Shown here: piece after piece, positions 12,038 to 28,706 of the stretch
Position numbering within the stretch: the first letter of the stretch is position 1
How the letters are laid out: each line of letters begins with the position of its first letter
Assembly: GCA_045591285.1 (NCBI GenBank)
Contig: JAZNSP010000012.1
Coordinates: 4,718 to 68,717 of the forward strand
DNA: 64,000 bases
Source: Acutalibacteraceae bacterium
Lineage (GTDB): Bacteria > Bacillota > Clostridia > Oscillospirales > Acutalibacteraceae
Direction: 5' to 3'
Made by a program: the position numbers and the translations under genes
Notes under the pieces: model-generated
What the model was told of the DNA's origin: nothing
The model's input: the letters and a program-made list of their open reading frames with translations, nothing else
The model's database searches: none

Positions 12038-12453
12038 TTATTTTATATTATATCTGTTGCAGTAATTAACAACTATATTCTTAAAATGCTCGTGTCTGAA
12101 ATTGTTTTTTACGTCGCTTACGTCAATATAGAAGCCTGACATCAGATTTTGAATTATGGCTTCCGCTAAGAAGGCTTCAAATATATAGTCATCAGAGAAG
12201 GCTTCTTCAATATCTGTGTTAAGGTCAGTATTTATTCCCTTGATTGCCGCACGGTAAATCAGGTTTTCCTTACCTAAAAATTCACCTGCATTTTTAAGAC
12301 AGACTAAGCCCTTTTTTATATCCGAAACGGTTATTTTCCCTTTGTATTCTACGGTCTTTTCGTTTCCCGTTAAAATAAAATCTATTGTTGTTTCAAAAAT
12401 TTTTGCAAGGTTGGGAAGAAGGGTGATGTCGGGTAAGGCTTCTCCCGTTTCCC
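12038..12453 (-). pseudogene. 3' fragment (137 codons) of an XRE-family gene split by the mobile element
   Basis: Translates ...ETGEALPDITLLPNLAKIFETTIDFILTGNEKTVEYKGKITVSDIKKGL...NFRHEHFKNIVVNYCNRYNIK*, collinear with residues ~40-175 of the paralogue 32434-32961. There is no start codon, and homology ends at 12453. Confidence 0.85.
12443..12453. repeat. attL junction core (TCCC-G-TTTCCC)
   Basis: Imperfect direct repeat of 28583-28594. Host homology ends here, and the element arm GTACTTAAAGAT follows. Confidence 0.7.
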
Positions 12454-12520
12454 GTACTTAAAGATATTGGTTATGTATGAGTGCCTACGCCTACTTGCAT
12501 AGGCACTCATATCTTTGTTT

Positions 12521-13430
12521 TTACTCAATTTTGCCGATTAAGCGGTAGTAGATGTCAATATTTTGCTCACGCATACCGTCCACGGTGGTTGCTTCGTGAA
12601 TAACGATCTTTTCAATCAGCGTATTCAGAAGCTCCGCTGTCAGTTCGGTGGGGTTGGTATACTGTTTGAGAAGTGAAATCCAAGTCTCCGCATCGACAGT
12701 TGTTTGCTTTTCAGATTCAAGCTCGGCAGACAGCCTTTCAATCTTCTCGGTAAGCTCCTGCTGCTCGGTCTGATATTTCTGAGACATCATGTTGAAGTTG
12801 TACTCCGTGATACGACCATCCGACCAGTCCTCATACAGCTTCGCAAACTTGCGGTCAACCTCAGTTCTGCGCTTTTCGGCTCTTGTAAGCTCTGCGCTCT
12901 GCCTTTTGGCATTGGCGGCAAGCTCCTGTTCGCTTCCTTTCAGCAGCCGATGCAGAAGTTCCTTTTCATCCAACTGCGCCTGTCTCCACAACTCCTGTAT
13001 TCTTGTCAGAACATAGTGGTAGAGGTAGTCATATCGGATGTAGTGGGCAGAACATTGTTTCACCCCCTGTCCGTATTGACTGCAAGTGTAATGGCTGTAA
13101 GGCTTGCTGTTCTGTCTGTTCGTACCGAAGCGCATCGACCATCCGCAGTCCACACACTTCACCAGACCGGAGAAGATCTGCGTGGTAGCGTCCTTTTGCT
13201 GTCTGCGGCGGCTGGCGATCTGTTCCTGCACCTGTTCAAAGACTTTCTTGGAGATAATGGCTTCGTGGGTGTTCTCCACTCGGAACCATTCCTCCTGCGG
13301 CTTGCGTATCTTTTTCTTGTTCTTGTAGGAAATGTTTGTCTGTTTGTTGTGTACGCTGTTGCCGATATAGGTTTCGTCTTTTAAGATGCTCTTGACCTGT
13401 GCCAGCGTCCATGCGTAGGACTTTTCTTCC
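12521..13430 (-). pseudogene. Large serine recombinase, C-terminal part (recombinase domain, zinc ribbon, coiled coil), separated by the IS
   Basis: The frame is open up to 13430 and reads EEKSYAWTLAQVKSILKDETYIGNSVHNKQ...VKCVDCGWSMRF...CSAHYIRYDYL... plus a coiled coil. Confidence 0.85.
13426..13430. repeat. Target-site duplication CTTCC (left)
   Basis: Identical 5-mer at 14946-14950, flanking the IS ends. Confidence 0.75.
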
Positions 13431-14945
13431 TGTCAAGGGGGACATGGTTTACAGATTGTCCGAGCACATGGTTTACAACTTTCGTACAAAAAGTTGTTCC
13501 TAGATTTGGAGCCTGAGGTAAGGAAGCCACACCCTTTAGGGTGCTTGCTCTTGATAGGTTCTGAAAGAAATGCAACACTATTTTCCCGATGACGAAACAG
13601 AATTTTTAGTTCCTGAGTTCTTCGCCATCGGTAATTGTTAATTGCATTTCTTTCACGGTTCTGTCAAGAGTGGCGGCTCTTTTCTTGGATCTCCTGTTAT
13701 CAGGTATGCCCTTTTGAATTCATAAGCCCGTTTGTCGAGATTTAATTTTCCGATAATAAATTGCCTGTAATAAAGATTGATACATCCGTTTGTTGATGAT
13801 TCTCTGATTGCAATTTCTTTCCCGGCGAAGGCTTCGCTTAAGTAGTACGAACGTCCTTTATATGAAAAATATCCTGTCGATTTTACTTTATGGGGGGTAC
13901 AATTTTCAGGATATTCCCATTTGCGGATTTTGGTGCTATATTCGGTATTGCTTTTTATGTAATGCTTTGACGGTGTATCTAAATTCAATGAATGATGTGG
14001 TCTTTTGTTATTGAAAAAATCACGGTATTCATTGAATTTGCGTTCTGCATCAGTAAAATCATCAATCTTTGTGTATTTCAATAATTCTCTTTTCATTGAA
14101 CCGTTAAAACTTTCTTCTTTCCCCTGTGTCTGTGGGTGAAGTATTCTTCCGTGTAATGTCAGTATTCCCAAATCCATAAACCATACTTCAAACATGGAAT
14201 AGCCAAGACCTTGTGATGATCCCCAAGGGTGACCGTTATCACACAAAAACGAAAATGGTAAGCCAAATTCATAAAAGATGTCTTCCATAACAGGTTTTAC
14301 TGTTGCAAATCTGACATTCGGCAATGGTCTGCAACATAAATTAAATCTTGTGCAGTCATCCAAAATATTCAAAGGAAAGCATCTTTGTTTGTTTTGCAGC
14401 AGAAAATCACCTTTGAAATCAGCTTGCCACATCTCATTCGGGTAAGCTTTTTGAAACCGCTTATATGGTGTGGCAGCAAGGCTTGCTTCTCTGGTAATCA
14501 AACCGTTTCTTTTGAAAATTTCATTGATTGTGCTTGAGCAAGGAATATTCACATATCCTTCATCCTGTAACATACGATGAATTTTTACGGCACCGATAGC
14601 AGGATATTTTTTGCGGTAGTCCACAATGAAATGTTCCATTTCTACAGAAGTCTTGTTTGCGGTTTTGAACGGAGCTCTGCTTTTGTCCGACAAATCATCT
14701 TCTTGCAAAAATCGCTTTATCCATTTATCTCCTGTCGGACGGCTTATTCCATATTCTCGACACAATTCAGATTTGCTTTTTTCTTTGGATAACACTCGTT
14801 TTACAAATTCTTCTCGCATTTGTTCTACACTCTTTTCTTTCCAAGGCATACACATCTCCCTCTCGATGTTTTTTGCCTTTATTTTATCAAAAAAGTGTAA
14901 ACTATGTCCTCGGACATTTTGTAAACTATGTTATCACACTACACA
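13431..14945 (-). mobile_element. IS481-family-like insertion sequence (1515 bp)
   Basis: Ends are TGT...ACA. Imperfect ~36-bp terminal inverted repeats: ACATGGTTTACAGATTGTCCGAGCACATGGTTTACA versus the reverse complement ACATAGTTTACAAAATGTCCGAGGACATAGTTTACA. Single transposase ORF. G+C is lower than the surrounding element. Confidence 0.85.
13653..14855 (-). CDS. DDE transposase (HTH + rve integrase core), IS481-like
   Basis: 400 aa. N-terminal HTH (ELCREYGISRPTGDKWIKRF) and an rve core (MWQADFKGD..., LCDNGHPW, ...QGKEESFNGSMKRE). Confidence 0.85.
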   Translation of the reverse strand: MCMPWKEKSVEQMREEFVKRVLSKEKSKSELCREYGISRPTGDKWIKRFLQEDDLSDKSRAPFKTANKTSVEMEHFIVDYRKKYPAIGAVKIHRMLQDEGYVNIPCSSTINEIFKRNGLITREASLAATPYKRFQKAYPNEMWQADFKGDFLLQNKQRCFPLNILDDCTRFNLCCRPLPNVRFATVKPVMEDIFYEFGLPFSFLCDNGHPWGSSQGLGYSMFEVWFMDLGILTLHGRILHPQTQGKEESFNGSMKRELLKYTKIDDFTDAERKFNEYRDFFNNKRPHHSLNLDTPSKHYIKSNTEYSTKIRKWEYPENCTPHKVKSTGYFSYKGRSYYLSEAFAGKEIAIRESSTNGCINLYYRQFIIGKLNLDKRAYEFKRAYLITGDPRKEPPLLTEP

Positions 14946-15645
14946 CTTCCGGCTGTCCTTCGTAGATATGAGCAAATGTCCCATATCGCTGATAGTTCAG
15001 CCATCCGGCGGTAGGAACGTGTTCATCTACCAATACTCTTGCGATCTTGGCAGCACCCGCCCCATGATAGGCAAGGTCAAAGATTTTCTCGATAATCCAG
15101 CGTGTCTCCACATCAATCACAATGGCGTTCTTGATTTCGGGATGTCGGACATACCCAAGGGGCGCATAGGCAAAGGTGCGTTCTCCTGCGGCAAACTTTG
15201 CATGAAGTGCGGTCTTGACCTTGCGGCTGGTGTCCTTGGCAAACCATTCGTTGAACAGATTCTTGAAAGGAACGAAATCGGACAAGCCTTTCTTGGTGTC
15301 CTCGTTCTCGGATACGGCGATATATCGCACTTGCTTCTCCGGGAACTCGTATTCCAGATAGTAGCCGACCATGATGTGGTCACGTCCGAAGCGGCTGAGG
15401 TCTTTGGTCACGATGCAGTTTACTCGTCCTGCATCTACATCTGCCATCATTCGCTTGAAATTGGGTCTTTCAAACGTAGTGCCACTCCATCCGTCGTCGA
15501 TGTACTCGCCAACCACATGAAGCTCCTGTTCCTTTGCGAACTGCTGTAAAATGGTACGCTGGGTCTCGATGGAAACGCTGTCGCCATAATTCTCGTCATC
15601 ACGACTCAGTCTCATATATAGTGCTGTATTGTACGGTTGTTTCAT
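14946..15645 (-). pseudogene. Large serine recombinase, N-terminal catalytic part, separated by the IS
   Basis: ALYMRLSRDDENYGDSVSIETQ (catalytic Ser motif) ...VTKDLSRFGRD... The authentic sequence ends ...AHIYEGQPE and then reads into the IS. Removing the IS and one TSD copy gives a 1605-nt, 534-aa ORF. Confidence 0.85.
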
Positions 15646-15670
15646 TAAAAATCCTCCTGTTCGTGAAACA

Positions 15671-15719: not shown

Positions 15720-15758
15720 CTGTGATTCAATTCGATTCTGTGAACAATTTTCTGAATT

Positions 15759-16052
15759 TTATGCGGACACGGTATTTCCTGCGGCGAAGCGGACAAGGTT
15801 TAGAATTAGCTCGTCCATGGTCTGTCCGTCGGGCGAGAAGAACTCCGTTACCTTGGTGCGGGTATTGCCGTTATAGTAGTAAAGCGTACCGTCAAGCTCG
15901 GTTCCGTAATAACCTCGTTCCTTGTTTGCGATAAATCGTTCCTCCCATTCTTTTTCCCACTTTTTGATTACCGCTGCAGGTGGATCAAAGATCATATCAA
16001 AACAGGCGCAAAGGTCGATGGGTTCGTATGCGGTGGTGATTTCGTTGATCAT
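15759..16052 (-). CDS. Hypothetical small protein (element backbone)
   Basis: 97-aa ORF in the same orientation and composition as its neighbours, 11 nt downstream of the relaxase stop. No domain recognised. Confidence 0.5.
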   Translation of the reverse strand: MINEITTAYEPIDLCACFDMIFDPPAAVIKKWEKEWEERFIANKERGYYGTELDGTLYYYNGNTRTKVTEFFSPDGQTMDELILNLVRFAAGNTVSA

Positions 16053-16063
16053 TCAATTCTTCC

Positions 16064-17548
16064 TTATCGTTCATTCTGATGGTGACGGTTTTTGTTCTGT
16101 TCCGAAAGCTGCTGTCTTTCGTTGTCGGCACTTCTGACCGCCAGCGTGACTTGACGCAGATTGCGTACATCATCACGCAGAGCTTCCATTTCTGTTTGCA
16201 TGGAGGCGTACTCAGCTTCCAATGCGGCAGCGTCTTTTCTCCATTTTGTCAGCGGCAGCTTGCCGTCATGGAAATGCGGTTTCAGCTTGCGCTCGGCGGC
16301 GTAATATTTGCGAAGCTCGCTTTCGTGTTCTTCCTTAAATTTGTCTTTTTTACCCTTGAACTTGATGCGATACCATTCATCGTAAATGGGTTTGGTATCG
16401 GCATAATTCTGTGCCTGCCGCAGAAGCTCGGCTGTCTCTTTCATCTTGGCTTCAACGGCTTTGCAGGCGGCAGATCGTGCGTCCAACTTCTCCTGCTGTG
16501 CAGATACCCTTGCTTCCAGATCGGCAACGGTACGCAGATTGTTCTCGCTGATATAATTCACAAGCTGGCTCATGTTTTTGAGATTCCCCACCTTGCCATA
16601 GACGCTCCATGCACCGGCGTTGCGCTTGCTGTAGTAATCGGTGATGATCTCTGCAAGGGTGGATTCCTTCGGTGCTTTCAGCTCACGGTTGATCTCACGG
16701 ATGGCGGCGAACAGTTCACTCAGCATGGCAGCGATATTCTTTCTCATGCTGTTGATGCGGCGAATCCATCGGTTCATATCGCCCTTGTCGGTGCGGATGC
16801 CTTTTGCTTCCATGGCTCGGACGGTCACGCCCTCATGGACGGTGGGAACTTGGTCGATACCCTGTCGCTCATAGCTGCGGTGGTCGATCCGGCAGCTCAA
16901 GTCCTTTTCCTCAAACTTCTGATTGCACAGATCAGCCCATGCTTGCCGCCAATGCTCTAAGGTGTCGGGACTGCCCCAGTCGGTGGTAGGGACGGCATTG
17001 AATACATAGTTTCCTGCTTCGTCCCGGATGCGCTCACCGTTTTCGTCAAGAAGATATTCTCGCCGCTGCTTGTTGCCCCATCTGCCGTGTTCGTCCAGAG
17101 GACGGATGGGACACATGACATGGAAATGGGGATTGGAAATGCCGCCGTCCTCCTTGTCGGGTGCGTGAACGGCAAAGTCCACCACCATGCCACGGCTCAC
17201 AAACTGCTCCAATAAAAATTGCCTTGCAAGTTCGATGTTCTCCTGCATGGAAAACTCGTTCTGCAAAGCAATGTCGAAGCTGTATGCAAGCTGCGCTTTC
17301 TTACCTCGTTCCGCTTTCTCCACTTCGTTCCATAAGGTTTCCCGATCAGAGAAAGAGGGTGGGGCATGGGGTGGCAGCAGGATTTCCGAACAGATCACGC
17401 CGCCCTTTTTGGTGTAGTCGCTGTCCTCACCGTAGTATTCGCTGTGCAGCTTTTCGCCGGAGCGATAGGCGGCAGATGCAATGGCGGATTGTCCTGCGCT
17501 GCGCTTGATTTGTGTCACATGGAAATGATATAGTGCGATACTCAACAC
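16064..17548 (-). CDS. MobA/MobL-family (MOBQ-type) relaxase
   Basis: The N-terminus YHFHVTQIKRSAGQSAIASAAYRSGEKL carries the catalytic Tyr region. HAPDKEDGGISNPHFHVM is the His-rich metal motif. Long coiled-coil C-terminus. GTG start overlaps the upstream gene's stop. Confidence 0.9.
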   Translation of the reverse strand: MLSIALYHFHVTQIKRSAGQSAIASAAYRSGEKLHSEYYGEDSDYTKKGGVICSEILLPPHAPPSFSDRETLWNEVEKAERGKKAQLAYSFDIALQNEFSMQENIELARQFLLEQFVSRGMVVDFAVHAPDKEDGGISNPHFHVMCPIRPLDEHGRWGNKQRREYLLDENGERIRDEAGNYVFNAVPTTDWGSPDTLEHWRQAWADLCNQKFEEKDLSCRIDHRSYERQGIDQVPTVHEGVTVRAMEAKGIRTDKGDMNRWIRRINSMRKNIAAMLSELFAAIREINRELKAPKESTLAEIITDYYSKRNAGAWSVYGKVGNLKNMSQLVNYISENNLRTVADLEARVSAQQEKLDARSAACKAVEAKMKETAELLRQAQNYADTKPIYDEWYRIKFKGKKDKFKEEHESELRKYYAAERKLKPHFHDGKLPLTKWRKDAAALEAEYASMQTEMEALRDDVRNLRQVTLAVRSADNERQQLSEQNKNRHHQNER

Positions 17549-17859
17549 CTCTCTTTCTGTTCTGCCCGGTTGTGTTCGTTGACCGCTTCCATAAGCAACC
17601 CCTTGACCTCCGGGACGGCAAGAGCTTTTTCTGTAAAAGCATAAAACTCGGTTTCGGTCAAAACCTTTGTCAGCGGTGCGATACTTTCAATGGCTGCGCC
17701 ACGGGTGATAAGGTGGTGTGCCCGCTTGCGCCGATCTCCTTTTTCATAGTAGGTGATACGGTTCTCAATCTGCTGTTTTTTGTGTTGGAGCTGTGAGAGC
17801 TTGCGTTCATTTTCCGCTTTCTCGGCTTCCAGTTCGGGGATGGTTTTCTGTTTTGCCAT
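17542..17859 (-). CDS. DUF3847-like relaxosome accessory protein (MobC-like position)
   Basis: 105 aa, coiled-coil N-terminus, immediately upstream of and overlapping the relaxase gene. Confidence 0.65.
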   Translation of the reverse strand: MAKQKTIPELEAEKAENERKLSQLQHKKQQIENRITYYEKGDRRKRAHHLITRGAAIESIAPLTKVLTETEFYAFTEKALAVPEVKGLLMEAVNEHNRAEQKERC

Positions 17860-17939: not shown

Positions 17940-18785
17940 TTATTTTGAACTACTCGATTCTATCAACTCGAATAATTCGACTGCTTTTTTTATTTTTACA
18001 ACGTACCCAAGATTCATCATAGTTTCCATTTCAGCGACAGGAACCGCCGAAGTAGGAATATCTTTTATAATAATTTTTCCATCAACAGAAATAGTTGGTC
18101 CGGCATAAAGAACCCCTAAAAGAGAATATGAAGCACTAACTCCAAGACGTAATCCATTATCAGTTGTTTCTTTTTCAAGGCCAGTTTTTCTCAAAAAGAT
18201 AGGGGAGCCACTTGATCCCGGAAAACACGCTGCGTCAATGAGGAAAATCGGTTCTCCGTCATAATCAAGCTTTATGTTTGTTGCTGTGATACCCTTTCTG
18301 ACAACGGGTTTACAGTTATAATCATCCATGATCCCATTAGGATAACCAATCATAATGATATCCTCAATAGCGGTAAGGGAATCATAATCTTCTGGTCTAA
18401 GCAGCATTTCTTTCCCAATGCATCTATAGTACGGTTTCTTGCCTTGTTTTTGCAATTCTTCCATCTCAGAATTTATAAAAACAAAACAAATGTCAATGTC
18501 AGAATCTGGATGATAAAAACAGTTTTTTTGTAAGTCAGGGAGAGTAATTGTGAGGTGATCAGTATCTGCAGGATTGCCGTTTCCATCATCAGAAACTAAT
18601 TTAATCGTTGCAGTTGAATATCCAGAAACAACATGCTTGTTTGTCACCAACGCAAGATAATTCCCGTTTGATTTACTCTCGTAAAGCATGAAAAAGCCTG
18701 TTCCAGATGCGGCTTCAGTTGCATTTGAGCAAATAATTCGTGCGGTTGAATATACCAACTGATCGGCAATGCTATCTTTTATCAT
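17940..18785 (-). CDS. Stand-alone trypsin-like (S1/Trypsin_2-type) serine protease, no signal peptide
   Basis: Triad contexts VTNKHVV (His), DSDIDICF (Asp) and FPGSSGSPIF (Ser). The ATG at 18785 is 7 nt after GGAGG. The longer track ORF (to 18920) runs into the oriT region. Confidence 0.8.
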   Translation of the reverse strand: MIKDSIADQLVYSTARIICSNATEAASGTGFFMLYESKSNGNYLALVTNKHVVSGYSTATIKLVSDDGNGNPADTDHLTITLPDLQKNCFYHPDSDIDICFVFINSEMEELQKQGKKPYYRCIGKEMLLRPEDYDSLTAIEDIIMIGYPNGIMDDYNCKPVVRKGITATNIKLDYDGEPIFLIDAACFPGSSGSPIFLRKTGLEKETTDNGLRLGVSASYSLLGVLYAGPTISVDGKIIIKDIPTSAVPVAEMETMMNLGYVVKIKKAVELFELIESSSSK

Positions 18786-18810
18786 CAGTAATCCTCCTAT
18801 GAGTTTTATG

Positions 18811-18968
18811 TGTGGGATAGCCGCAAAGCGGCGCAAGGGGTGTAACCCCTTGTTTGGAACAAAGTGACGCAAAACAGACAGGACTTCTATCGTCCGGGAT
18901 GTCTGCCTCGCAGAGCGCACATACAGGGCTTGCCCCTGTATAGAAGTGCGCCCTTTGTTCCAAAGGGA
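18811..18968 (+). other. Candidate oriT (MOBQ-type): multi-hairpin GC-rich region with nick-core motif
   Basis: Hairpins: GCCGC-aaa-GCGGC (18820-18832), AAGGGG-tgtaa-CCCCTT (18835-18851), CAGAC..GGAC/GTCC..GTCTG (18875-18905), GCGCAC+ATACAGGG/CCCTGTAT+GTGCGC (18915-18951) and CCCTTTG-ttc-CAAAGGG (18951-18967). AAGTGCGCCCT lies at 18944-18954, just 3' of the ATACAGGG/CCCTGTAT repeat. Confidence 0.65.
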
Positions 18969-19796
18969 TTATTCTGCTGGGATCTCCATTCCTGGCCAAT
19001 AGTTAGCCAATTCGGGAACTTGGTGTTTAACCGCCCATATAGTTTGAATAGCAATACAAAGGACTGGTGTGATGACATCGGTTATTGGGGCGTTTGCCAT
19101 TTCAACGACAGGAGAATGACCTATATCAATATGAGCCCCTCTTTTATCAGATAGGTGTTTAAGGAAATTGTACATACTGAGATCGTAATATCCAATTTTC
19201 TTCAGCATCGAGAAAATAATAGCGTTTTTCTGCGTATCAGTTGCATCTACTCTTGTATGGATTGTTGACATAGACCCTTGATACATTACATCTTTCTTTT
19301 CAAACAACGGTTCAAATATAAGTTTGTCGGCTTTTTTTAATTTGTTCAGTATGTTTTCATACACAAATTCTGGAAGCATATCGGGCAAGTCAGAAACAGT
19401 TTTATCAAACCAAGCTATATTCTGTGCAAGCCATTGTTCAACAGAAATCCATTTATCTTGTGTGGCAATCGTCAGATTAGGACGAATCATCTTCATCTTA
19501 TTATCTAACTCAATCGCCGTTCCAGTTAGAGGTGACAATTTCAAATCTGGTGCCACCTTTAACAAAACCGAATTCTGCTCACATAGCAATTTTCGAAGGG
19601 GCATTACCAATATTCGGTCGAGCATTGGTAGGTATTCTTTCCCCAATTCATCCAGTTGCGTTAAGCACAACCGAATAATATCAAACTCCGTTTCGATTTC
19701 TTTAATCATTCCTTTTCTTCCTAAATTGAATTCCATAACAAAGGATAGTTCTGGATTCATGTTGATTCTATTTGCATTTTGATCCATGGTACTCAT
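18969..19796 (-). CDS. Hypothetical 275-aa protein (mostly helical, no recognised domain)
   Basis: ORF with RBS AAGGAGA 7 nt upstream. It has its own upstream terminator and intergenic region, and G+C is low relative to the element backbone. Confidence 0.6.
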   Translation of the reverse strand: MSTMDQNANRINMNPELSFVMEFNLGRKGMIKEIETEFDIIRLCLTQLDELGKEYLPMLDRILVMPLRKLLCEQNSVLLKVAPDLKLSPLTGTAIELDNKMKMIRPNLTIATQDKWISVEQWLAQNIAWFDKTVSDLPDMLPEFVYENILNKLKKADKLIFEPLFEKKDVMYQGSMSTIHTRVDATDTQKNAIIFSMLKKIGYYDLSMYNFLKHLSDKRGAHIDIGHSPVVEMANAPITDVITPVLCIAIQTIWAVKHQVPELANYWPGMEIPAE

Positions 19797-19849
19797 CTAT
19801 ATTCTCCTTGTATTTTCATCTACAAAATAAGTTGGTGGTAAAATATAAT

Positions 19850-19872
19850 AAAGGCGACCAAAGCCGCCTTTA
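19850..19872 (-). terminator. Terminator hairpin after the four-gene operon
   Basis: AAGGCGaCC-aaa-GcCGCCTT with a T-rich tail on the minus strand. Confidence 0.5.
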
Positions 19873-19901
19873 TTATACCATATTTTTGTGAATTTTTCAA
19901 T

Positions 19902-21311
19902 TTATCGATCCTTGGTCAATTCAGTTTCAATATGACTTTTTTCATTTTTAAGCATATTGATTCTATCCAAGAGAGGTTGACGCTCTGATTCTATAGCCGC
20001 TACCCTTGCTGCTACATCATCTTGAATAGATTTTTTCTGACGCTTAATTGTTACATCAACGCTTTCAATCTGTGTCTGTAAAGAATCAATTTGTACCTGT
20101 AATGCTTTTTTCTGTTTTCCGGCAAACAACCCAAGTTTTGATTTTTCCGCAGTTAAATCATTCTGTTGTTTTTTTAACTCAGCCAACTGACTTTCCGCAG
20201 GAAGTCGCTGTGAAAGATCTTTCTTAATTTCTTCAATCCTTGCCATAAACGAAGCATCTTGACTCGTGAGCGTTCTAAGTTCAGCGTCAATAGCAGTTAA
20301 CCGAGTTTCATATTGCTGTTTTTCAGCTATATGTTCGCTCCAATATTGATCTCTGCGTTCTTTCTTTTTCTGCTGAACAATTTCATCCTTATATCGATGA
20401 ACCCGTTGGTTTATTGCTCTATCAGCATCCAGACATTTTTGATAGTTGATTTTTGTTGCCTCAAGACTATTAAAAGCTTTTGTATCTAATCTGGCAATGA
20501 CACTATATTCGCTGGTGGGTTTCTTGAACGAAGGATTATATTTGCGCACTTCAAAAATCATATTATCATAAACTCTGAGATAAGGTTGCTTATCTGGCGC
20601 AGACAATCCCGAATATATCAAATCATCCTGAGAGTAATTAGTCCATATTTGAGCATAACTACACACTGCTTCACAAGCAGAACAATATAATTCACCGACA
20701 CTCTCAATAAGCGAAGCCGATTCACTTTTAATCACAACATCCATATAACTCTCTATGTATGTGATTACTTTTGAGCCAACTTCTCTGTAGTTATAAATAA
20801 TATCGCTGTTACTTTGATAAAAATCAGTAATATCCAAATATCGTTCTTGAACTTTATCAAACCATGCAGCCATTAACCTTGTCAAATCTACTATAAAGAC
20901 TTCCTTGACTTTTTGTGATATTTCAGTTGGAATGTACGGGACAGATTGTTGATATGCCGCAACCGCCTCTCCTATACGAGGTCTTGCTAAAGTTGTTTCC
21001 CATCCTTGGCACATTCCTTTATAGAAAATGCTCTGATAATCAGTGGGATTGATTTCCAAGACCTTCAAAAAATACTGATATGCTTCTTTTGTATTTCCTG
21101 CATTGTAGGCATTGATAGCCATGTCTTTGTATGTTGCTTCTTTGTCAGAATTATCAACTTTGACAGTACCCTCAACTTGCACAACACCTTCGACCATCAT
21201 TTTTTTAGCTTCTTCAACAGAGTATTTACAACCACAGGTTTGGCATACAAATACGCCATCTTGCTTTAACAAGTCGGTGCTTCCACACATTTCACAAGTT
21301 AATTGTTTCAT
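19902..21311 (-). CDS. Zinc-ribbon / TPR-like / long coiled-coil protein (469 aa)
   Basis: N-terminal CEMCGS-x14-CQTCGC ribbon. TPR-like AINAYNAGNTKEAYQYFLKVLEINPTDYQ. The C-terminal ~170 aa is heptad-rich (QQYETRLTAIDAELRTL...LQVQIDSLQTQIESV...). Confidence 0.7.
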   Translation of the reverse strand: MKQLTCEMCGSTDLLKQDGVFVCQTCGCKYSVEEAKKMMVEGVVQVEGTVKVDNSDKEATYKDMAINAYNAGNTKEAYQYFLKVLEINPTDYQSIFYKGMCQGWETTLARPRIGEAVAAYQQSVPYIPTEISQKVKEVFIVDLTRLMAAWFDKVQERYLDITDFYQSNSDIIYNYREVGSKVITYIESYMDVVIKSESASLIESVGELYCSACEAVCSYAQIWTNYSQDDLIYSGLSAPDKQPYLRVYDNMIFEVRKYNPSFKKPTSEYSVIARLDTKAFNSLEATKINYQKCLDADRAINQRVHRYKDEIVQQKKKERRDQYWSEHIAEKQQYETRLTAIDAELRTLTSQDASFMARIEEIKKDLSQRLPAESQLAELKKQQNDLTAEKSKLGLFAGKQKKALQVQIDSLQTQIESVDVTIKRQKKSIQDDVAARVAAIESERQPLLDRINMLKNEKSHIETELTKDR

Positions 21312-21328
21312 CTATCTACTCTCCTACG

Positions 21329-22009
21329 CTATTTCAAAATTTTGCATTTTTTATTTCGCTCATCCAAAAGCGAATTAAGTTCGGTTATGATCTCCAACTT
21401 ACATGAAGTGGTTTTTAATTCTGCAGCCTTGATGGAGATTATGTTTTCCAAATCCGCTAACTGTTCGTTGCTCATAGGATCGGAATAACGGATTTTTTCA
21501 GCGAGCTGTGTAAGTGCCGTTTTTACGGCGGCATCACTTTCGTTATCTGCCAACAATTCAATATCGGCTTGCAGTTCTCGGATATAGAAAACCTTCTTCT
21601 GTACCTTTGCTTCAACTCGCTCAATTTCATTGCGCCCTGCATCGGCAGAGATCATGCACACCGCAGAAACACCGGCGATAACGGAGCAAACCACGATTGC
21701 ACTCCACGCAGGGAGTGTCGGCACGAACATGAACACGGCAAATGCAATTACTTGAATGACCGCATATACAATTCCAATGTGTACAACCGGAAAACCAAGG
21801 AACTTGCTTTTCAGCGTTTCCTCTTTACCAAGTGCAGTTTTCCAAATGCCGATCTGCACTGCAAATGCAGCAGCGGTGAACACATAAGCAATCCAGAATG
21901 TTGCTGTCTTTATCGTCGGAACAGCAAAAGCGATAATGCTGACCAGCGCAAATAAAATCCCAAGGATTACATATCCTTTTGCTTTCTTCTTCAATATGTT
22001 CACCTCCAT
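21329..22009 (-). CDS. 4-TM membrane protein with cytoplasmic helical tail (226 aa)
   Basis: Four hydrophobic helices in the first ~125 aa, then a charged helical domain. It overlaps the upstream stop by 10 nt. An alternative TTG start at 21994 lies 8 nt after GGAGG. Confidence 0.65.
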   Translation of the reverse strand: MEVNILKKKAKGYVILGILFALVSIIAFAVPTIKTATFWIAYVFTAAAFAVQIGIWKTALGKEETLKSKFLGFPVVHIGIVYAVIQVIAFAVFMFVPTLPAWSAIVVCSVIAGVSAVCMISADAGRNEIERVEAKVQKKVFYIRELQADIELLADNESDAAVKTALTQLAEKIRYSDPMSNEQLADLENIISIKAAELKTTSCKLEIITELNSLLDERNKKCKILK

Positions 22010-23091
22010 GACTTATCTTGATACGGTGTATTTTCAACACCCGTGTTTTGGAGGTATCCCACCATTTTGTCCAATGCACTCTGACATACTTTTTTGAACC
22101 AACAAGTTTCGCCAAACCACTGAACAAGGGTCGGACTGATTGCATAATAAATTCGGATAAATGCTCTGCCATACCAAGTAGCAGCAAGAGTATTATCACG
22201 GAAACGGCGTAAAGTCCACACTTCCGGACAATCATAAGAGCCATATACGCAAGTTGCGACATAACAACCACCACTACTCTGCTGCGTTGTAGATGACACA
22301 GCATTGTAAGAAGGGTCGTATTTTTGAATTTTCATAGCGTACTCGTTAATAATTTGCTGTCCCTGTTGCTTGTTCGGTAATTGACGATTACAATCCTGAT
22401 GAATTTCAACGCCTTGCTTCCATGCTTTTACACAAACATCGGTAAGTTGTCCAAACAAGTGGGGGAATCGTTGCTCGATTTTGTCGCCAACCATATAGCT
22501 GATTGTAGCAATGGTCAAACAGGTCATAGCAACTGATTTCAAATGGGAGGGAAGCTCTGTAATGGATACATTGACACCGTCAGGACTCAACACAAAATTG
22601 TGGAAACTTCCAACCAATGACATACAAGAATCAGCTACATCTTTCAGTGCAGCGATTTTTTCAGATTCTCCATTTTCTTTTTCGTCAATCATATCGAATA
22701 CAGTATCCAGACAAATTACGATTGATTGAGCAGCTTCTTGTACCTCATATTTGTGTGCCTCAGCTGCCTTATAATAAGTGCAGTAGAAGAACGCTTCCCA
22801 ACTCGACGGATCTTCGCTTAAAATCATATTATAGTATTTTGCGGCTTCGGAAACATTGCTGTTTTTTCTGAATCGACGGGCTGTTTGATATAGGTTATCA
22901 AGATTCGGTCCAGCAACATTAACAGTTGCGCCGTAAAATACATTATTATTGGTAATATTTGTCTGGTAATTATTGATTACCTTCTCTGTGATAAAAGTAG
23001 TACCACAACTTTCGCAGATACCGGCTTCTTTCGTGTCGTCAACTTGAATATTTGCACCGCATTGTGTGCATTTAGCAGGGATTAAAGCCAT
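22000..23091 (-). CDS. Zinc-ribbon protein with TPR-like region and C-terminal Cys-rich GCYVATCVYGS...LRRFRD module (363 aa)
   Basis: N-terminal CTQCGA-x14-CESCG ribbon. AAKYYNMILSEDPSSWEAFFY is TPR-like and paralogous to the N-terminus of 19902-21311. C-terminal GCYVATCVYGSYDCPEVWTLRRFRDNTL. Confidence 0.7.
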   Translation of the reverse strand: MALIPAKCTQCGANIQVDDTKEAGICESCGTTFITEKVINNYQTNITNNNVFYGATVNVAGPNLDNLYQTARRFRKNSNVSEAAKYYNMILSEDPSSWEAFFYCTYYKAAEAHKYEVQEAAQSIVICLDTVFDMIDEKENGESEKIAALKDVADSCMSLVGSFHNFVLSPDGVNVSITELPSHLKSVAMTCLTIATISYMVGDKIEQRFPHLFGQLTDVCVKAWKQGVEIHQDCNRQLPNKQQGQQIINEYAMKIQKYDPSYNAVSSTTQQSSGGCYVATCVYGSYDCPEVWTLRRFRDNTLAATWYGRAFIRIYYAISPTLVQWFGETCWFKKVCQSALDKMVGYLQNTGVENTPYQDKSWR

Positions 23092-23106: not shown

Positions 23107-24276
23107 TTATCTCTTAGTTCCACACTTCGGACAGAATTTACCGGGCTTGATGAACTTGAAACCGCATTTTACGCAAGTGTCAGACGGTGCTTGTACTGCG
23201 CCACATTCATCACAGAAAGCTGCTCCCGGTGTCAGCTCTGCTCCACATTGGTCGCAGAATTTGTTTGCAGCAGTTTGGGGCTGAACAGCACCCATACCTG
23301 CAAAGGCATCCGAAACAACACCACCGACCATGCCGCCAACAGTACCACCAACGCCTGCCATCATACCCAAGCCAATTCCCATATTAGAGAACTGTCCGGC
23401 AGCTTCATTACGAGCTGCATCCTGCGCCACATCAAAGCCACGCTCCTGCTGATAGGTGTAGCCTTCCTGCATACGCTTGGTAGCCTGTGCCTGCGAATCA
23501 ATGACAACCTTTTGTGCTTCGGTCTGTGCATGAATCACATCGGTCTGCTGACGAAGTTTTGCTTCGGCAATATCGGCGTACTGACGGAAATGCAGTTCCT
23601 TAAATTTTTCATACTGCGAATCACCGTCCGGCTTGACGATGGTGGTAACATAAAAGCGTTTCAGATCTACGCCGTAGTCCAGAAAATCGGGAATCAAGCG
23701 CTCCTTAATATCCGCAGAGAAAGTTTCCAGGCTTTCATCAATTTCAAAAATATTGATGGCATTGGCTCGCATAGTCTGTGCGATATAGGTTTTCACTTTT
23801 GCCATCAATATACTGCGGAAATAGGTTGTAAGTTGCTGACGATCCAGCACACGTTCCGTACCAACCAATTTCACAAGCAACTTACGGGAATCATCCACGC
23901 TGAGTGACATTTCGCCGCTTGCACCAATGGACAGAGGGAACTTATAGGTAGGCTCTACATACTGAACTTTGCTGTCTGTCCCCCAGCGGATTGCCATCTG
24001 TTCAGTCTTATTGATAAAATAGACCTCACAATGGAATGGTGTTTCTCCACCTGTGGGAATGTTGATCAATCTGCGCAGGATAGGAATGTTCTGAGTCTCC
24101 AGGATGTGTCTGCCCGGACCGAACAAATCCAACGCCTGACCATTTAGAAAAAGGATAGCTTCCTGCGATTCATGCACAATCAGTTGCGTGGTTGTATTAA
24201 AATCTTCGCAAGGATGCTTCCATATGAAGGTACTATTGTCGCCTTCATACTTGATGATGTCGGCAATATTTGCCAT
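23107..24276 (-). CDS. SPFH/Band-7-like protein with Gly-rich linker and two C-terminal zinc ribbons (YdjI/COG4260-like)
   Basis: The ATG at 24276 follows GGAGGCGGAG. The N-terminus IIKYEGDNSTFIWKHP...LIVHESQEAILFLNG resembles the YdjI-type SPFH family. GMGIGLGMMAGVGGTVGGMVGG linker. Ribbons CDQCG-x10-CDECG and CVKCG-x10-CPKCG. Confidence 0.75.
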   Translation of the reverse strand: MANIADIIKYEGDNSTFIWKHPCEDFNTTTQLIVHESQEAILFLNGQALDLFGPGRHILETQNIPILRRLINIPTGGETPFHCEVYFINKTEQMAIRWGTDSKVQYVEPTYKFPLSIGASGEMSLSVDDSRKLLVKLVGTERVLDRQQLTTYFRSILMAKVKTYIAQTMRANAINIFEIDESLETFSADIKERLIPDFLDYGVDLKRFYVTTIVKPDGDSQYEKFKELHFRQYADIAEAKLRQQTDVIHAQTEAQKVVIDSQAQATKRMQEGYTYQQERGFDVAQDAARNEAAGQFSNMGIGLGMMAGVGGTVGGMVGGVVSDAFAGMGAVQPQTAANKFCDQCGAELTPGAAFCDECGAVQAPSDTCVKCGFKFIKPGKFCPKCGTKR

Positions 24277-24413
24277 AACTCCGCCTCCTTCGATTTTTTT
24301 ATTGTGTACCTTTGCAAAATACAGAAAAGTTACAATTATCGTTGAAAATGTTCGACTCAACACCTTGAAAAATCATGCATTTTGTGGTAAACTATCATGA
24401 GGTATAATTTAAT

Positions 24414-24461: not shown

Positions 24462-25088
<627 letters not shown>

Positions 25089-25121
25089 TCATAGGCATTC
25101 ACCCCTTTGATGTCTTATATT

Positions 25122-25409
25122 TTACAGCGTTCCAATGCCGTTCTTTTTCGCCCACTCACTTGCCGCCTGTCTCCGTTCCTCACTGTACGGAGCAGTCAAA
25201 CGGAAGCTCAATCTGCCTTTCTCAATCTCAAAGGTCAGCCCGCCTTGTTCATCATCGTCGATCTGGCGACAGCACTGCGGATGCTCTTTCGCAAATGCAG
25301 TTAGTCGATTTTTCAGATCGGTATTGTGAGTCTGCACTTCGATCATGCTCCCGTACTCGTCAAAATAGATTGCTGTGGTCTTTTCTTTCTTGGTAAGTCC
25401 TGTTCTCAT
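25122..25409 (-). CDS. Hypothetical small protein (element backbone)
   Basis: 95-aa ORF with RBS AGGAGG and backbone-like composition. Confidence 0.5.
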   Translation of the reverse strand: MRTGLTKKEKTTAIYFDEYGSMIEVQTHNTDLKNRLTAFAKEHPQCCRQIDDDEQGGLTFEIEKGRLSFRLTAPYSEERRQAASEWAKKNGIGTL

Positions 25410-25557
25410 AAAACCTCCTGTTTTTCATAAATTTTTCTCAGCTCTTGAATTGGAAAAGTGATGCGATTTTCCGATAGAAACACTATAAACGATGCGGAGG
25501 ATGTTTCGTCTCACGCTATCGGCTGATTTGTCATTTTTCCGGCTCTTGACCGTGTTT

Positions 25558-25758
25558 TCACGCTTTTCGGTTTGTGCGGCTTCTCAGCCATTCCACAAGC
25601 TCATTTTTCATTACCAGCTTGCGTCCACCGATCCGCAAGGTTGGAAAATCCGGGTCATTCAAAAGGTTGTACGCACCCGCTTTGGAAATCTGCAATGCTT
25701 TGGCAAGCTGCTTTGCATCCATCACATCGGGCATGGTTTCAAACGGTTCTCTGCTCAT
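25558..25758 (-). CDS. Excisionase-type/MerR-like HTH DNA-binding protein
   Basis: 66 aa. MDAKQLAKALQISKAGAYNLLNDPDFPTLRIGGRKLVMKNELVEWL matches the HTH_17/Xis pattern. Confidence 0.75.
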   Translation of the reverse strand: MSREPFETMPDVMDAKQLAKALQISKAGAYNLLNDPDFPTLRIGGRKLVMKNELVEWLRSRTNRKA

Positions 25759-25778
25759 AAAATCCTCCTTTCGGGCAT

Positions 25779-25811
25779 CAAAAAAGCAGCCACGATTTTT
25801 TGTAGCTGCTC
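25779..25811 (-). terminator. Rho-independent terminator of the 190-aa orphan gene
   Basis: The minus strand reads AGCAGC-tacaaaaaatcgtg-GCTGCT followed by TTTTTT. Confidence 0.6.
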
Positions 25812-25833
25812 TTACAAACTAATGTTGTTCTTT

Positions 25834-26406
25834 TTAGGTTCCTGATGATTCAAAATCAGGTAATGCTTTTCCATTGGCACACAGAATTACTCCCGGATAT
25901 TCGCTATTGAAATAATCGCACTCTATACTTAATGACATCATAGTGGAACCAAGCATACTCTGCATTAAGTACAACTCCATAACCATAAGTGCGGCTAATG
26001 CACTGACAGCATTATTAAGCGTTGCAAGGTTGAATTTCCAAAATGTTTGATGCTTAATGTTGCTATAGTCATCCCACCAGGAAATGCCTACAACTCGCTT
26101 TTTTCCGTCAGCAGGATCTGTGACAACTTTCCAATTTTCAAGAGGTCGTAGCGTTTGGTAATCTGAGGTAATTTCTGTTTCACCAATGTGGGGATACTTT
26201 TGAAGTATCGTTTCTGTGATCTTTCTGATATTTGCATTTTGGATATTGAAATTACTATCAATGCTCAAGCAAATTGCTTTGCAGATATTCTCAAACTCCA
26301 TTGCAGACAGCAGAATGATCTGTTGAAATTCAAAAGAATTTACGCTGGCGTTATTTAGCTCATTATTATCAGAACTGTGATCAACAAATTGTCTTGTGTT
26401 GTCCAA
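25834..26406 (-). CDS. Hypothetical 190-aa protein (low-GC moron; possible HEPN-like fold, speculative)
   Basis: ORF with its own terminator and clearly lower G+C than its neighbours. Helical, with the motifs FENICKAICL and ISWWDDYSNIKHQTFW. Confidence 0.5.
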   Translation of the reverse strand: MDNTRQFVDHSSDNNELNNASVNSFEFQQIILLSAMEFENICKAICLSIDSNFNIQNANIRKITETILQKYPHIGETEITSDYQTLRPLENWKVVTDPADGKKRVVGISWWDDYSNIKHQTFWKFNLATLNNAVSALAALMVMELYLMQSMLGSTMMSLSIECDYFNSEYPGVILCANGKALPDFESSGT

Positions 26407-26475
26407 ACGCTTACAAAGAGAACAAAAGTAGTTCCAATAGTGTTTTTACTTCTTTTTCGGACATTGCCATATCTG

Positions 26476-27429
26476 TCATTCTCCCTTTCTTCCTACGTGT
26501 TTATCTAAAAAGCTGCCATATTCCCCGGACACATAATCCTCATACGCACCGGCGATCTTTTCAATGTGTTTACTGACGGCACTCGGTGTCTTGAAGCCAA
26601 CAGCGGCAGCGATCTCTTTAAGAGAACAGCCATCCATGCGCATCCGCAAGATTTGCTTATCCTGTTCGGTGAGTTTTCGCTCGAACTGCTCAATACCGAT
26701 TTTCTGCAGCACCTTGGTTTCGAACTCTGCTGCCGGGTTGGGAATGTCAAACAGCATTTCACCGTCGATCATAGCCCCGGTTTCTGCAATTTCCTCGATG
26801 GACAGATGCTTGTGATTGCGGTCATGATACCAAGAACGGTTGAAGTCCCGTTTATGAACGCTGGAGCCGCTGTAATCATCGGGGTTGCGGTTATTCCAGA
26901 ACTCGTCAATCATCGGCTGCCAGTTTTCCTCGGCAACGATCATATCGGTCAGATTGCCGATCAAATTGCTGAACTGCTGATAGGCAAGCCAAGGATGCTC
27001 ATCATCTCTATCCATCAGAAACAGACGTTGGAAGCTCCAATCCATTTCCGTCTCAAACTTTTTGCGGAAATGCTTGATGATCTCATAGGACAGCCGCCAC
27101 AGAGGAAAATCACCGGAATAGTTTTTCCAATCACCGGGAATGTCCTTGTATGTGCCATCCTTATTCGGCACTTGGAAGAATTGCCACGCAGACCACGCAA
27201 AGCAGTCCCACACCAACAATAGGAACATATCGTTCTTGATAACTTCCATACTGTCGGGGTCGTCAAGCAATCCGTAGATGTTTCTCGGCAAGGACAGGGC
27301 GGGTGGATATTTTTCAACAAGCTCTCTCGGCAGAGCATAGAACAGCGTCAGCCATGAAAGATTGCTTCCTTGCGGAATTTCGACAATGCCATCGGGTACG
27401 ATGGCGAAAAAGCTGTAGCGCAGACTCAT
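26476..27429 (-). CDS. Sigma-70 region-4-like / LuxR-type HTH protein (element regulator)
   Basis: C-terminal LTEQDKQILRMRMDGCSLKEIAAAVGFKTPSAVSKHIEKI. The ATG at 27429 is 9 nt after GGGAG; the longer track ORF has no RBS. Confidence 0.65.
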   Translation of the reverse strand: MSLRYSFFAIVPDGIVEIPQGSNLSWLTLFYALPRELVEKYPPALSLPRNIYGLLDDPDSMEVIKNDMFLLLVWDCFAWSAWQFFQVPNKDGTYKDIPGDWKNYSGDFPLWRLSYEIIKHFRKKFETEMDWSFQRLFLMDRDDEHPWLAYQQFSNLIGNLTDMIVAEENWQPMIDEFWNNRNPDDYSGSSVHKRDFNRSWYHDRNHKHLSIEEIAETGAMIDGEMLFDIPNPAAEFETKVLQKIGIEQFERKLTEQDKQILRMRMDGCSLKEIAAAVGFKTPSAVSKHIEKIAGAYEDYVSGEYGSFLDKHVGRKGE

Positions 27430-27620
27430 GTGGTTCATCTCCCTTCGGTGTAATTGATTGTGAAAAACATCATTTTGATGTTTTTCAATCATGTTACGGT
27501 TATTGTAAGTTCCCGATTTGGGTACTTGCCTAACTGTAACACTATATTCGTTACGATTGTTGCAAGTGGTCAGCGTGACCACTTGGCTTATCTGTAACAC
27601 TTTTCTAATTTTCGTTACGC

Positions 27621-27992
27621 TTACGCCAAGGTGTCAACTTGGCACTTTTCATTATCCGTAACGCTATCTCTGTATGCTTTCTGTCGGCAGGCATTGCAGC
27701 AGAACTTGGCATCCGACCTCTTAGGCGTAAAAGCATTGCCGCAGGTCTGGCAGGTGCGGTCTTTGCGTTCTTGCTCACGCCGCCATTTCAGTTCCTTTTG
27801 GTACCCATGATTACCGCACAGAGAATACAGACAATATTTCTTTGTTTTGATGGTAGTGTAGAATACTCTGCCGCATCCTTTACAACGAAACCTGCGGACA
27901 TGGAGATGAGTATCCTTACCCAACATCCTTTTCTCATAGTGTTCCTTTAGGTAATCCTGGTTCTCGTATTCCCATTTGCTGTGATTTATCAT
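27621..27992 (-). CDS. Cys-rich zinc-ribbon protein (123 aa)
   Basis: Three CxxC-type pairs (CKGCG, CQTCG, CCNAC). Basic. RBS GGAGGA. Confidence 0.6.
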   Translation of the reverse strand: MINHSKWEYENQDYLKEHYEKRMLGKDTHLHVRRFRCKGCGRVFYTTIKTKKYCLYSLCGNHGYQKELKWRREQERKDRTCQTCGNAFTPKRSDAKFCCNACRQKAYRDSVTDNEKCQVDTLA

Positions 27993-28257
27993 TTACACAT
28001 CCTCCGTATTGCGAAAATATAGAGGAGTTTTCATACCCCTCTATAACAGAGGGCATGAGAAGGCTCGTTTTTTTCCAATCTTTCAAAAATTTTTTGAAAT
28101 TTTTCAGATTTTTACGATTAACATCGGAATCGAAGCGAAAGGAACGATATTGTATTTATTATACAGGAAATTTGTGAATAAATCTATTGTTTCTAAAGAG
28201 GGCAAAAAAAGAAGCGGTATCCGAATCATAGCAGACTCGGATACCGCTTCAAGCGAA

Positions 28258-28503
28258 TCAATCAAGCGGCTTATATTCAGTAACCGCTTTTAGGTAGGCT
28301 TCGGGATCACCGTTCAGTACGAGATCGGCATAGGCAATAGGGTCATTATAGATGAGATAGTCAAGCTCCGACCGCTGATACATATTGTCGGCAACCTCAT
28401 TCTCAACAGCAATGGTATCAATCGCAATCATGCTCCCATCGGTGAATTTCAGTTCTACACAGCAGTTATCGAAGTTATATTCGCAGGAAATCAGCTTTTT
28501 CAT
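28258..28503 (-). CDS. Hypothetical small protein, first gene at the right end of the element
   Basis: The ATG at 28503 is 8 nt after GGAGG. MKKLISCEYNFDNCCVELKF... Confidence 0.55.
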   Translation of the reverse strand: MKKLISCEYNFDNCCVELKFTDGSMIAIDTIAVENEVADNMYQRSELDYLIYNDPIAYADLVLNGDPEAYLKAVTEYKPLD

Positions 28504-28533
28504 AGGGTTTACCTCCAAAATTGTATTGTTTGG

Positions 28534-28552
28534 AAGTAATGTAAGCGTGGGT
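28534..28552 (-). promoter_or_regulatory. Second copy of the 19-nt motif ACCCACGCTTACAWTACTT
   Basis: The minus strand reads ACCCACGCTTACATTACTT, an 18/19 match to 15671-15689 (plus strand). It lies ~30 nt upstream of the first backbone gene. Confidence 0.4.
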
Positions 28553-28568
28553 TTTTAGTGTGGTATCT

Positions 28569-28706
28569 TTAAGTTTGGGAAATCCCTCTTTCCCATTTGC
28601 TTACAGCCTGAAAGGAAACTCCCAGTCTTTCACCTAAGTCACTTTGTGTAAGTCCTTTTTCTTTTCTTAAAGAAGCAATATGCTCACCGATTTTTTCTGT
28701 ATTCAT
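28569..28706 (-). pseudogene. 5' fragment (HTH) of the XRE-family gene split by the mobile element
   Basis: MNTEKIGEHIASLRKEKGLTQSDLGERLGVSFQAVSKWE, then reads into the element (RGISQT*). It aligns with the N-terminus of 32434-32961. Confidence 0.85.
28583..28594. repeat. attR junction core (TCCC-TC-TTTCCC)
   Basis: Imperfect direct repeat of 12443-12453. Host XRE homology resumes at ATTTGCTTACAGCC. Confidence 0.7.

Follow-up and report, generated by a model that had tools for sequence, protein, structure and literature searches.

The 64,000-nt stretch analysed here (the window; positions 4,718 to 68,717 of contig JAZNSP010000012.1, assembly GCA_045591285.1, from an Acutalibacteraceae bacterium) carries a helix-turn-helix (HTH) gene of the XRE family that is split by a 16,141-bp insert, and the two halves of the gene can be rejoined in frame. 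The insert is an integrative mobilizable element with its own relaxase and its own large serine recombinase (LSR), the gene for which is in turn broken by an insertion sequence. An annotation made earlier from the letters of the DNA alone, hereafter the sequence-only reading, had described a 16.1-kb integrative mobilizable element in an XRE gene, and its outline is borne out by what follows. The split gene and its intact paralogue lie as follows.

28587-28706, minus strand: 5' part of the split XRE gene, Met1 to Arg39, delimited by reading it and joining it to the 3' part.
12038-12445, minus strand: 3' part of the split XRE gene, Gly40 to the stop codon, including the putative crossover GG at 12444-12445; it aligns to residues 40-175 of 175-aa homologues and of the paralogue.
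32434-32961, minus strand: intact paralogous XRE gene of 175 aa, identified by alignment to the rejoined protein, with its target motif unoccupied at 32825-32850.

On the minus strand, 28595-28706 reads MNTEKIGEHIASLRKEKGLTQSDLGERLGVSFQAVSK, which translates as MNTEK...FQAVSK, and the present open reading frame (ORF) of the 5' part reads through to ...WERGISQT and a stop codon. Joining 28595-28706 to 12038-12453 gives an in-frame ORF of 528 nt encoding 175 aa, and the product aligns gap-free with the paralogue (32437-32961) at 81% identity over 174 aa; the 5' fragment, the length of the joined frame and its collinearity with the paralogue are all as the sequence-only reading had claimed. Among 5.8 billion proteins searched, 1,445 are related to the rejoined protein at E <= 1e-20; the closest share about 84% identity with it at a coverage of 100%, and a length of exactly 175 aa is found in 116 of the 120 best listed. 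Whether both fragments would align to one contiguous homologue had been posed as a check, and they do: each falls within single contiguous 175-aa homologues that are covered in full. Since the rejoined protein matches both the paralogue and these full-coverage homologues, the two fragments are one gene. The motif SKWER occurs in 118 of the 120 homologues listed, SKWERG in 117 and SKWETG in none. When the flanks are joined at GG, the resulting empty locus aligns to homologues with no gap at the junction and gives one 895-nt match, at 76.5%, to the paralogous region 32432-33318. Names such as Ruminococcaceae or Clostridia bacterium are attached to the homologues, both those of the XRE gene and those of its neighbours.

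The element itself spans 12446-28586, that is 16,141 bp including one crossover dinucleotide, or 14,621 bp once the insertion sequence and its duplication are subtracted. All of its credible genes lie on the minus strand, as does the split gene, and they are given here in gene order (L014, L015 and L016 are related elements described below).

28258-28503, minus strand: DUF6061, the first gene of the element (Pfam E 3.2e-43).
28250-28211, minus strand: strong terminator predicted downstream of DUF6061.
After DUF6061 in gene order, minus strand: 123-aa zinc-ribbon protein, from domain scans.
26476-27600, minus strand: 374-aa protein with a C-terminal sigma-70 region-4 / LuxR-type HTH, judged by weak matches.
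Between the 374-aa HTH protein and the small resolvase, minus strand: a 190-aa and a 95-aa protein, as ORFs.
24462-25061, minus strand: small serine recombinase of resolvase/invertase type, 199 aa (Pfam Resolvase E 1.4e-31), conserved in L015 and L016.
23107-24363, minus strand: SPFH/Band-7 protein with C-terminal zinc ribbons, a backbone gene common to L015 and L016.
18969-23091, minus strand: variable cargo (275-aa, 469-aa TPR/coiled-coil, 226-aa membrane and 363-aa CFI-box-CTERM proteins), mostly absent from L016.
17940-18920, minus strand: cargo trypsin-like protease of the candidate phage-defence family PDC-S45 (PADLOC E 3.6e-98; Pfam Trypsin_2).
17542-17859, minus strand: DUF3847, candidate relaxase accessory protein (Pfam E 3.4e-29), preceding the relaxase in L016 too.
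16064-17548, minus strand: MobA/MobL relaxase (Pfam E 5.7e-91).
15759-16052, minus strand: conserved 97-aa backbone gene, with a 97-aa gene at the same position in L014 and L016.
14946-15645, minus strand: N-terminal part of the LSR gene, with the Resolvase catalytic domain and Ser14, assigned by Pfam and by similarity to TnpX.
13431-14945, minus strand: IS481-like insertion sequence of 1,515 bp, delimited by its TGT...ACA ends, inverted repeats and target duplication.
12521-13425, minus strand: C-terminal part of the LSR gene, with the end of the Recombinase domain, Zn_ribbon_recom and DUF4368, assigned by Pfam and reconstruction.

LSRs are common in prophages and in some conjugative elements, and the insert might be the remnant of the former or a self-transmissible example of the latter. 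However, a Pfam scan of all element ORFs of 85 aa or more found no coupling protein (T4SS-DNA_transf, TraG) and no VirB4 or other type IV secretion ATPase. Given further that no capsid, tail, terminase or portal match was found in the element, that a collection of 50,697 phage records held no match to it, and that the minimal relative, of 4.4 kb, carries only DUF6061, a 135-aa protein, a relaxase, a 97-aa protein and a recombinase, we regard either of these origins as extremely improbable. The gene content, an integrase and a relaxase of its own with no coupling, mating-pore or phage genes, therefore makes the block an integrative mobilizable element. A plasmid collection yielded only weak partial matches, to two Subdoligranulum plasmids, and no named element; an Rfam search of the whole window returned nothing. 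Since the trypsin-like protease is absent from L016, it appears to be a cargo acquisition specific to the window.

The sequence-only reading was right in pointing to an LSR, and the element encodes one, a TnpX-like protein with a DUF4368 domain, but the 1.5-kb insertion sequence that splits the gene had been missed. Upstream of the break, Pfam places the Resolvase domain on 14926-15645 (E 2e-19), where the motif YMRLSRDD contains Ser14; residues 7-117 of the recombinase align to residues 8-118 of TnpX, the catalytic domain of which is the closest solved structure (2mhc, E 4e-27). Downstream of it, Zn_ribbon_recom and DUF4368 are located at 12521-13279. Between the two parts lies a 400-aa transposase ORF at 13653-14855 with Pfam matches to rve, rve_3 and HTH_28, whose best NCBIfam match is transpos_IS481 at 208.4 bits, against a cut-off of 224, followed by IS3 at 100 bits. 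The terminal inverted repeats of the insertion sequence are about 50 nt long and imperfect (78% complementarity), both ends start with TGT, and a 5-bp target duplication, GGAAG, stands at 13426-13430 and 14946-14950. TGT ends and a short target duplication are typical of the IS481 family in ISfinder. Once 13431-14945 and one GGAAG are removed in silico, an ORF of 534 aa is restored. It matches intact proteins of the same length from end to end at 98-99% identity, and these proteins carry all four Pfam domains, PF07508, PF13408 and PF14287 among them. An LSR is expected to combine a Recombinase domain, a zinc ribbon and a coiled coil in a single chain of some 450-700 aa, as the restored ORF does; in the window as found the chain is broken. 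The insertion sequence occurs in no relative, and because relatives are contiguous across the site, as in L014, it is best taken as a later arrival.

The insertion point falls at about codon 233 of the recombinase gene, within the Recombinase DNA-binding domain. As the gene is interrupted in this way, the copy is most likely not autonomous, and any movement would probably require a related recombinase acting in trans; neither a helper element nor a second such recombinase is visible within the window. It could be argued that the insertion sequence is harmless to function or that the fragments complement each other, so that the element would still be autonomous: apart from the break both fragments are intact, they share 98-99% identity with relatives that look functional, and the N-terminal one retains the catalytic domain. 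However, LSRs need their catalytic and DNA-binding domains in one chain. Given that the break lies inside the DNA-binding domain, that the upstream fragment stops within the insertion sequence after 6 foreign residues, and that the C-terminal ORF starts only at an internal GTG, we consider continued autonomy unlikely.

The ends of the element hold the sequences from which its attachment sites can be reconstructed: attL and attR at the two junctions, attP in the presumed circular form and attB in the target gene. Their parts are as follows.

12446-12465, minus strand: left arm P of the reconstructed attP, ATCTTTAAGTACGGGAAACG on the gene strand, kept in relatives with unrelated flanks.
28565-28584, minus strand: right arm P' of the reconstructed attP, GATTTCCCAAACTTAAAGAT on the gene strand, from junction comparison with relatives.
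12444-12445, minus strand: putative crossover dinucleotide at attR, GG on the gene strand and CC on the plus strand; the upstream ...GGGAAACG is constant and what lies downstream of GG is target-specific.
28585-28586, minus strand: putative crossover dinucleotide at attL, GG on the gene strand and CC on the plus strand; the preceding codon is target-specific and the following sequence constant.
12466-12501, minus strand: conserved hairpin that lacks a T-run, has 12 bp in its stem and separates the attR arm from the stop codon of the recombinase gene; found by reading the sequence and present also in the relatives L005-L014.

The imperfect direct repeats that had been claimed at the junctions, TCCCGTTTCCC (12443-12453) and TCCCTCTTTCCC (28583-28594), are both present. 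In addition, an 18-nt arm, ATCTTTAAGTNNGGGAAA, occurs in exactly two copies in the 64-kb window, one at each end of the element and in inverted orientation, where 0.06 chance matches are expected and none of 100 shuffles contained two or more copies. Read on the gene strand, attL is ...AAATGGGAAAGA-GG-GATTTCCCAAACTTAAAGAT and attR is ATCTTTAAGTACGGGAAACG-GG-AGAAGCCTTACCCGAC.... The attP predicted from them, ATCTTTAAGTACGGGAAACG-GG-GATTTCCCAAACTTAAAGAT, is 42 bp long with GG at its exact centre and 16 of 20 arm positions symmetric, and so has the form expected of an LSR attP, namely about 40-50 bp of imperfect palindrome around a non-palindromic 2-bp centre that is shared with attB. The sequence-only reading had already pointed to a near-palindrome of LSR type; the palindrome stands, although two of the bases flanking its centre differ from those of the attP given here.

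Comparison of junctions among relatives bears directly on where strand exchange took place. In attL of near-identical elements the codon before GG is ACC, CGT, AGC, AAA, CGG, AAC, AGT, ACG or AGA, and GG(G/A)TTTCCC... is constant; in attR of relatives ...GGGAAACG-GG is constant and the bases after GG change with the target. Because attL varies before GG and attR varies after it, exchange would be confined to GG, and we infer that the crossover is the central GG (plus-strand CC at 12444-12445 and 28585-28586). Homology to relatives ends at 12440-12447 and 28595-28599. The attB reconstructed accordingly, AAATGGGAAAGA-GG-AGAAGCC, encodes K-W-E-R-G-E-A, and the join at GG restores the W-E-R-G found in homologues. 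The same element could instead have been exchanged inside the shared TTTCCC (GGGAAA on the gene strand), in which case the original gene would have read W-E-T-G and the circle joint GGGAAAGAGGGATTTCCC. This is the longest identical block at both junctions and a join there is in frame. The sequence-only reading held that only a crossover inside TTTCCC restores the frame, a conclusion it reached by aligning the repeats with an indel; this was mistaken, since CC and TTTCCC (12448-12453 and 28589-28594) share the same offset, 16,141, and the joins 28587/12445 and 28595/12453 therefore both keep the frame. Moreover, GGGAAA and GG are separated by two bases, which are CG at every target in attR of close relatives but change with the target in attL of near-identical elements; being constant in one and variable in the other, they belong to the element in attR and to the target in attL. 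Given also that the block lies 3-8 bp off the symmetry centre of attP, and that W-E-T-G is found in 0 of the 120 homologues listed, we think exchange within TTTCCC very unlikely, and exchange at the central GG remains the crossover that we favour.

Elements of this kind are widespread. The identical DUF6061 protein is found on 23 contigs, and at the places shown with their upstream flank kept an HTH_3 fragment of 29-51 aa stands directly before it, with unrelated host genes beyond; the host genes flanking relatives include those for peptidase M3, MerR, GntR and DctP. A scan of one genome per species gave 422 loci encoding relatives, of which 80, from Lachnospiraceae, Oscillospiraceae and other Clostridia, were kept for junction analysis. 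Relatives in so many unrelated flanks show that the family has been mobile in the past. By its own account, the sequence-only reading would have been contradicted by copies of the block in other surroundings that lacked a common repeat at the junctions; the surroundings do differ, but every junction is the same XRE motif. In L014, a minimal element of 4,431 bp with both junctions that encodes DUF6061, a 135-aa protein, MobA/MobL, a 97-aa protein and the recombinase, removal at GG restores an in-frame XRE gene. L016 is an element of about 11 kb that has the backbone of the window element at 87-95% identity without most of the cargo. Loci L005-L013 encode recombinases that are 94-96% identical and have the same attR arm on a different backbone (Mob_Pre relaxase, primase/D5-like, DUF6076, DUF4062), which indicates that the integration module has been exchanged between element families. 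The left ends of these Mob_Pre-type relatives were not found with the P' arm pattern. In two other relatives, L015 and L018, there are two copies of the attL junction (7353 and 9920) about 2.5 kb apart, each with the same 45 nt of HTH fragment and each followed by a DUF6061 gene; this doubling suggests tandem accretion or partial duplication of elements.

All 44 distinct attR flanks are XRE genes, and the codon position, orientation and reading frame of the insertion are alike in every one. Translated, they give (W)-E-T-G-x-x-x-P, in most cases with D next, and then the remainder of an XRE domain; in the DNA, CC stands at +12/+13 in every flank and GA at +15/+16 in nearly every one. All 9 distinct attL flanks end TGGGA(A/G)NNN-GG, and the junctions together give the target consensus TGGGAR-NNN-GG-N10-CC-N-GA. 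Recombinases of the DUF4368 clade, to which this one belongs, have been described as multi-targeting (PMC10083194), and the clade includes TnpX, for which low integration specificity is reported (PMC5704250), so that a low-specificity transposon of Tn4451 type that came to lie in an XRE gene by coincidence might be considered. With 44 of 44 distinct sites in XRE genes at one codon position, frame and orientation, we find such a coincidence highly improbable. The alternative that we prefer, integration directed to a defined site, also accounts for the fixed orientation: the attP left arm, CGGGAAACG-GG, matches the left half of attB, TGGGAAAGA-GG, at GGGAAA in the same register, and TGGGAAAGA-GG comprises the codons for W-E-R-G, GG being the first two bases of the Gly codon. 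One motif in one orientation would then serve in many target genes because the attP left arm resembles the attB left half, and we infer that the recombinase reads a W-E-x-G coding motif. The stronger proposal that this lineage evolved to recognise DNA encoding the near-universal W-E-x-G-x3-P-D turn after the XRE recognition helix, with the attP left arm as a codon mimic, seems to us rather likely. A third XRE gene in the window (5613-6404, plus strand, 263 aa) has the target motif TGGGAACGGGG...CCCGA at 5721-5746, unoccupied.

Several observations weigh against this account. In 38 of the 80 genome loci the attR was not recognised by the search pattern, so the figure of 44 out of 44 applies to loci with an arm resembling that of the window; only 9 distinct attL left halves are available, and conservation in the right half of attB may reflect constraint on the HTH protein and not contacts made by the recombinase. 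An uninterrupted copy of this very gene was not found: the search that the sequence-only reading had proposed did turn up intact 175-aa homologues, but the best of these proteins is 84% identical, and an exact attB search with two free bases gave 0 matches in 185,579 species-representative genomes, so no empty attB of this exact gene was seen. Similarly, no circular junction was seen, as the full 42-nt attP pattern gave 0 matches in metagenome contigs. The mobilizable reading also has to suppose excision, an oriT and a helper element.

Two further searches concern the same sites. A relaxed 24-nt attP core gave two metagenome matches, both rejected as chance palindromes in unrelated high-GC intergenic DNA: GCGGGAAACGGGGGTTTCCCAAAC lies at 3918-3941 of contig L104 and at 2451-2474 of contig L105, is intergenic in both, and its surroundings are otherwise unlike the element, so that neither is taken as an attP. 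Exact look-ups of the proteins flanking the split gene returned no identical record. The nearest relative found, L106 (flanking protein 82% identical), has no XRE gene at that position and therefore synteny supplied no empty site.

Based on these observations, we propose the following history, to which as a whole, from TnpX-like LSR integration at GG to a later break by the insertion sequence, we would give a probability of roughly 85%. First, the element would have arrived as a circular form carrying the 42-bp imperfectly palindromic attP, transferred through its MobA/MobL relaxase with the help of a conjugative element. Once in the cell, its 534-aa TnpX-like LSR, with Resolvase, Recombinase, Zn_ribbon_recom and DUF4368 domains, would have recombined attP with an attB inside the XRE gene, strand exchange taking place at the central GG, the first two bases of the Gly codon in W-E-R-G. 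Such an exchange implies a circle joint GGGAAACG-GG-GATTTCCC and a repaired site TGGGAAAGA-GG-AGAAGCC. Finally, the IS481-like insertion would have struck the recombinase gene at about codon 233, leaving the copy fixed in place unless a related recombinase were supplied in trans.

The surroundings of the element have a history of their own. Positions 12036-12445 and 28587-29064 together form an old segmental duplicate of 32432-33318 (the single 895-nt match at 76.5% given above) that spans the split XRE gene and the intergenic region upstream of it and reaches ~190 nt into the divergent gene. At 32245-32370 (plus strand) a truncated helix-turn-helix ORF, MDQIKIGRFIALCRKKSGLTQMQLAERLGITDKAISKWETGK..., ends right after W-E-x-G and runs into the 3' end of the convergent paralogue; we considered it as the scar of a second element and rejected this, as no att-like sequence follows. 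Adjoining the split gene, 29451-30278 (plus strand) resembles, judged by eye from the sequence, a glycoside hydrolase 28 gene of which only a C-terminal fragment of 275 aa is left. In L106, a 443-aa Glyco_hydro_28 gene (6519-7850) directly follows the pair formed by DUF1538 and a 222-aa gene, with no XRE gene there. From these comparisons, rearrangement of the locus seems to have preceded the insertion of the element or to have been independent of it.

Among the Firmicutes, mobilizable elements that depend on one serine recombinase are an established class, of which Tn4451 is the best studied; its att sites share a 2-bp identity, it passes through a circular form, and it is not known to need a directionality factor (PMC5704250). 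Like Tn4451 and Tn4453 of C. perfringens and C. difficile, the element described here is an integrative mobilizable element of Clostridia with one LSR of the DUF4368 clade; its recombinase is closest in solved structure to the TnpX catalytic domain, and it too would form a circle and cross over at 2 bp common to its att sites. In contrast, its relaxase is MobA/MobL and not of the Mob_Pre (TnpZ) type, although the relatives with a 94-96% identical recombinase do carry Mob_Pre, the relaxase family of Tn4451. The recombinase gene comes last, beside the right end, while tnpX is the first gene of Tn4451; the putative crossover is GG, while that of Tn4451 is GA; a defined XRE coding motif appears to be targeted, as opposed to the low specificity of Tn4451 and Tn4453; and there is no antibiotic resistance cargo. 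For this reason, we place the element outside the Tn4451/Tn4453 family, although its mode of action would be like that of Tn4451.

Durrant et al. 2022 (PMC10083194) described DUF4368 LSRs as multi-targeting, in that clusters at >=90% identity are found in many target gene clusters. The main text of that paper gives relaxed or AT-rich motifs with a TT core, mentions 'more complex' motifs for the supplement only and makes no mention of helix-turn-helix targets. The LSR of the window element has the same domain architecture, but, unlike the multi-targeting enzymes as described, its many targets can be explained by one conserved coding motif. Serine-recombinase elements have been reported in HTH-XRE regulator genes of Streptococcus suis (PMC7168690), and in C. 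difficile the integrative and conjugative element Tn7740 and an associated integrative mobilizable element lie in an HTH-XRE regulator gene with no discernible core motif (PMC12271512). Here too a serine-recombinase element disrupts a helix-turn-helix regulator gene; these reports give the target gene only, and the likeness lies in the target. No mention of DUF6061 was found in the literature searched. The explanation of target range by a codon motif may be new.

For this genome, the findings describe an island with a candidate phage-defence gene that knocked out a regulator and appears then to have lost its mobility when an insertion sequence entered its recombinase gene. For a recombinase lineage that is widespread in gut Clostridia, the junctions give a 42-bp attP, a probable GG crossover and a target consensus, which could help annotation pipelines to delimit such elements and to recognise split XRE genes. 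If the lineage does recognise the DNA of the W-E-x-G turn, each element would have many landing sites in each genome and would work across families of Clostridia, and integration would always be co-directional with the target gene, placing DUF6061 directly behind the promoter of the target. It would also offer a simple explanation of why some DUF4368 recombinases look multi-targeting, since part of this 'multi-targeting' would really be the targeting of a protein-family motif.

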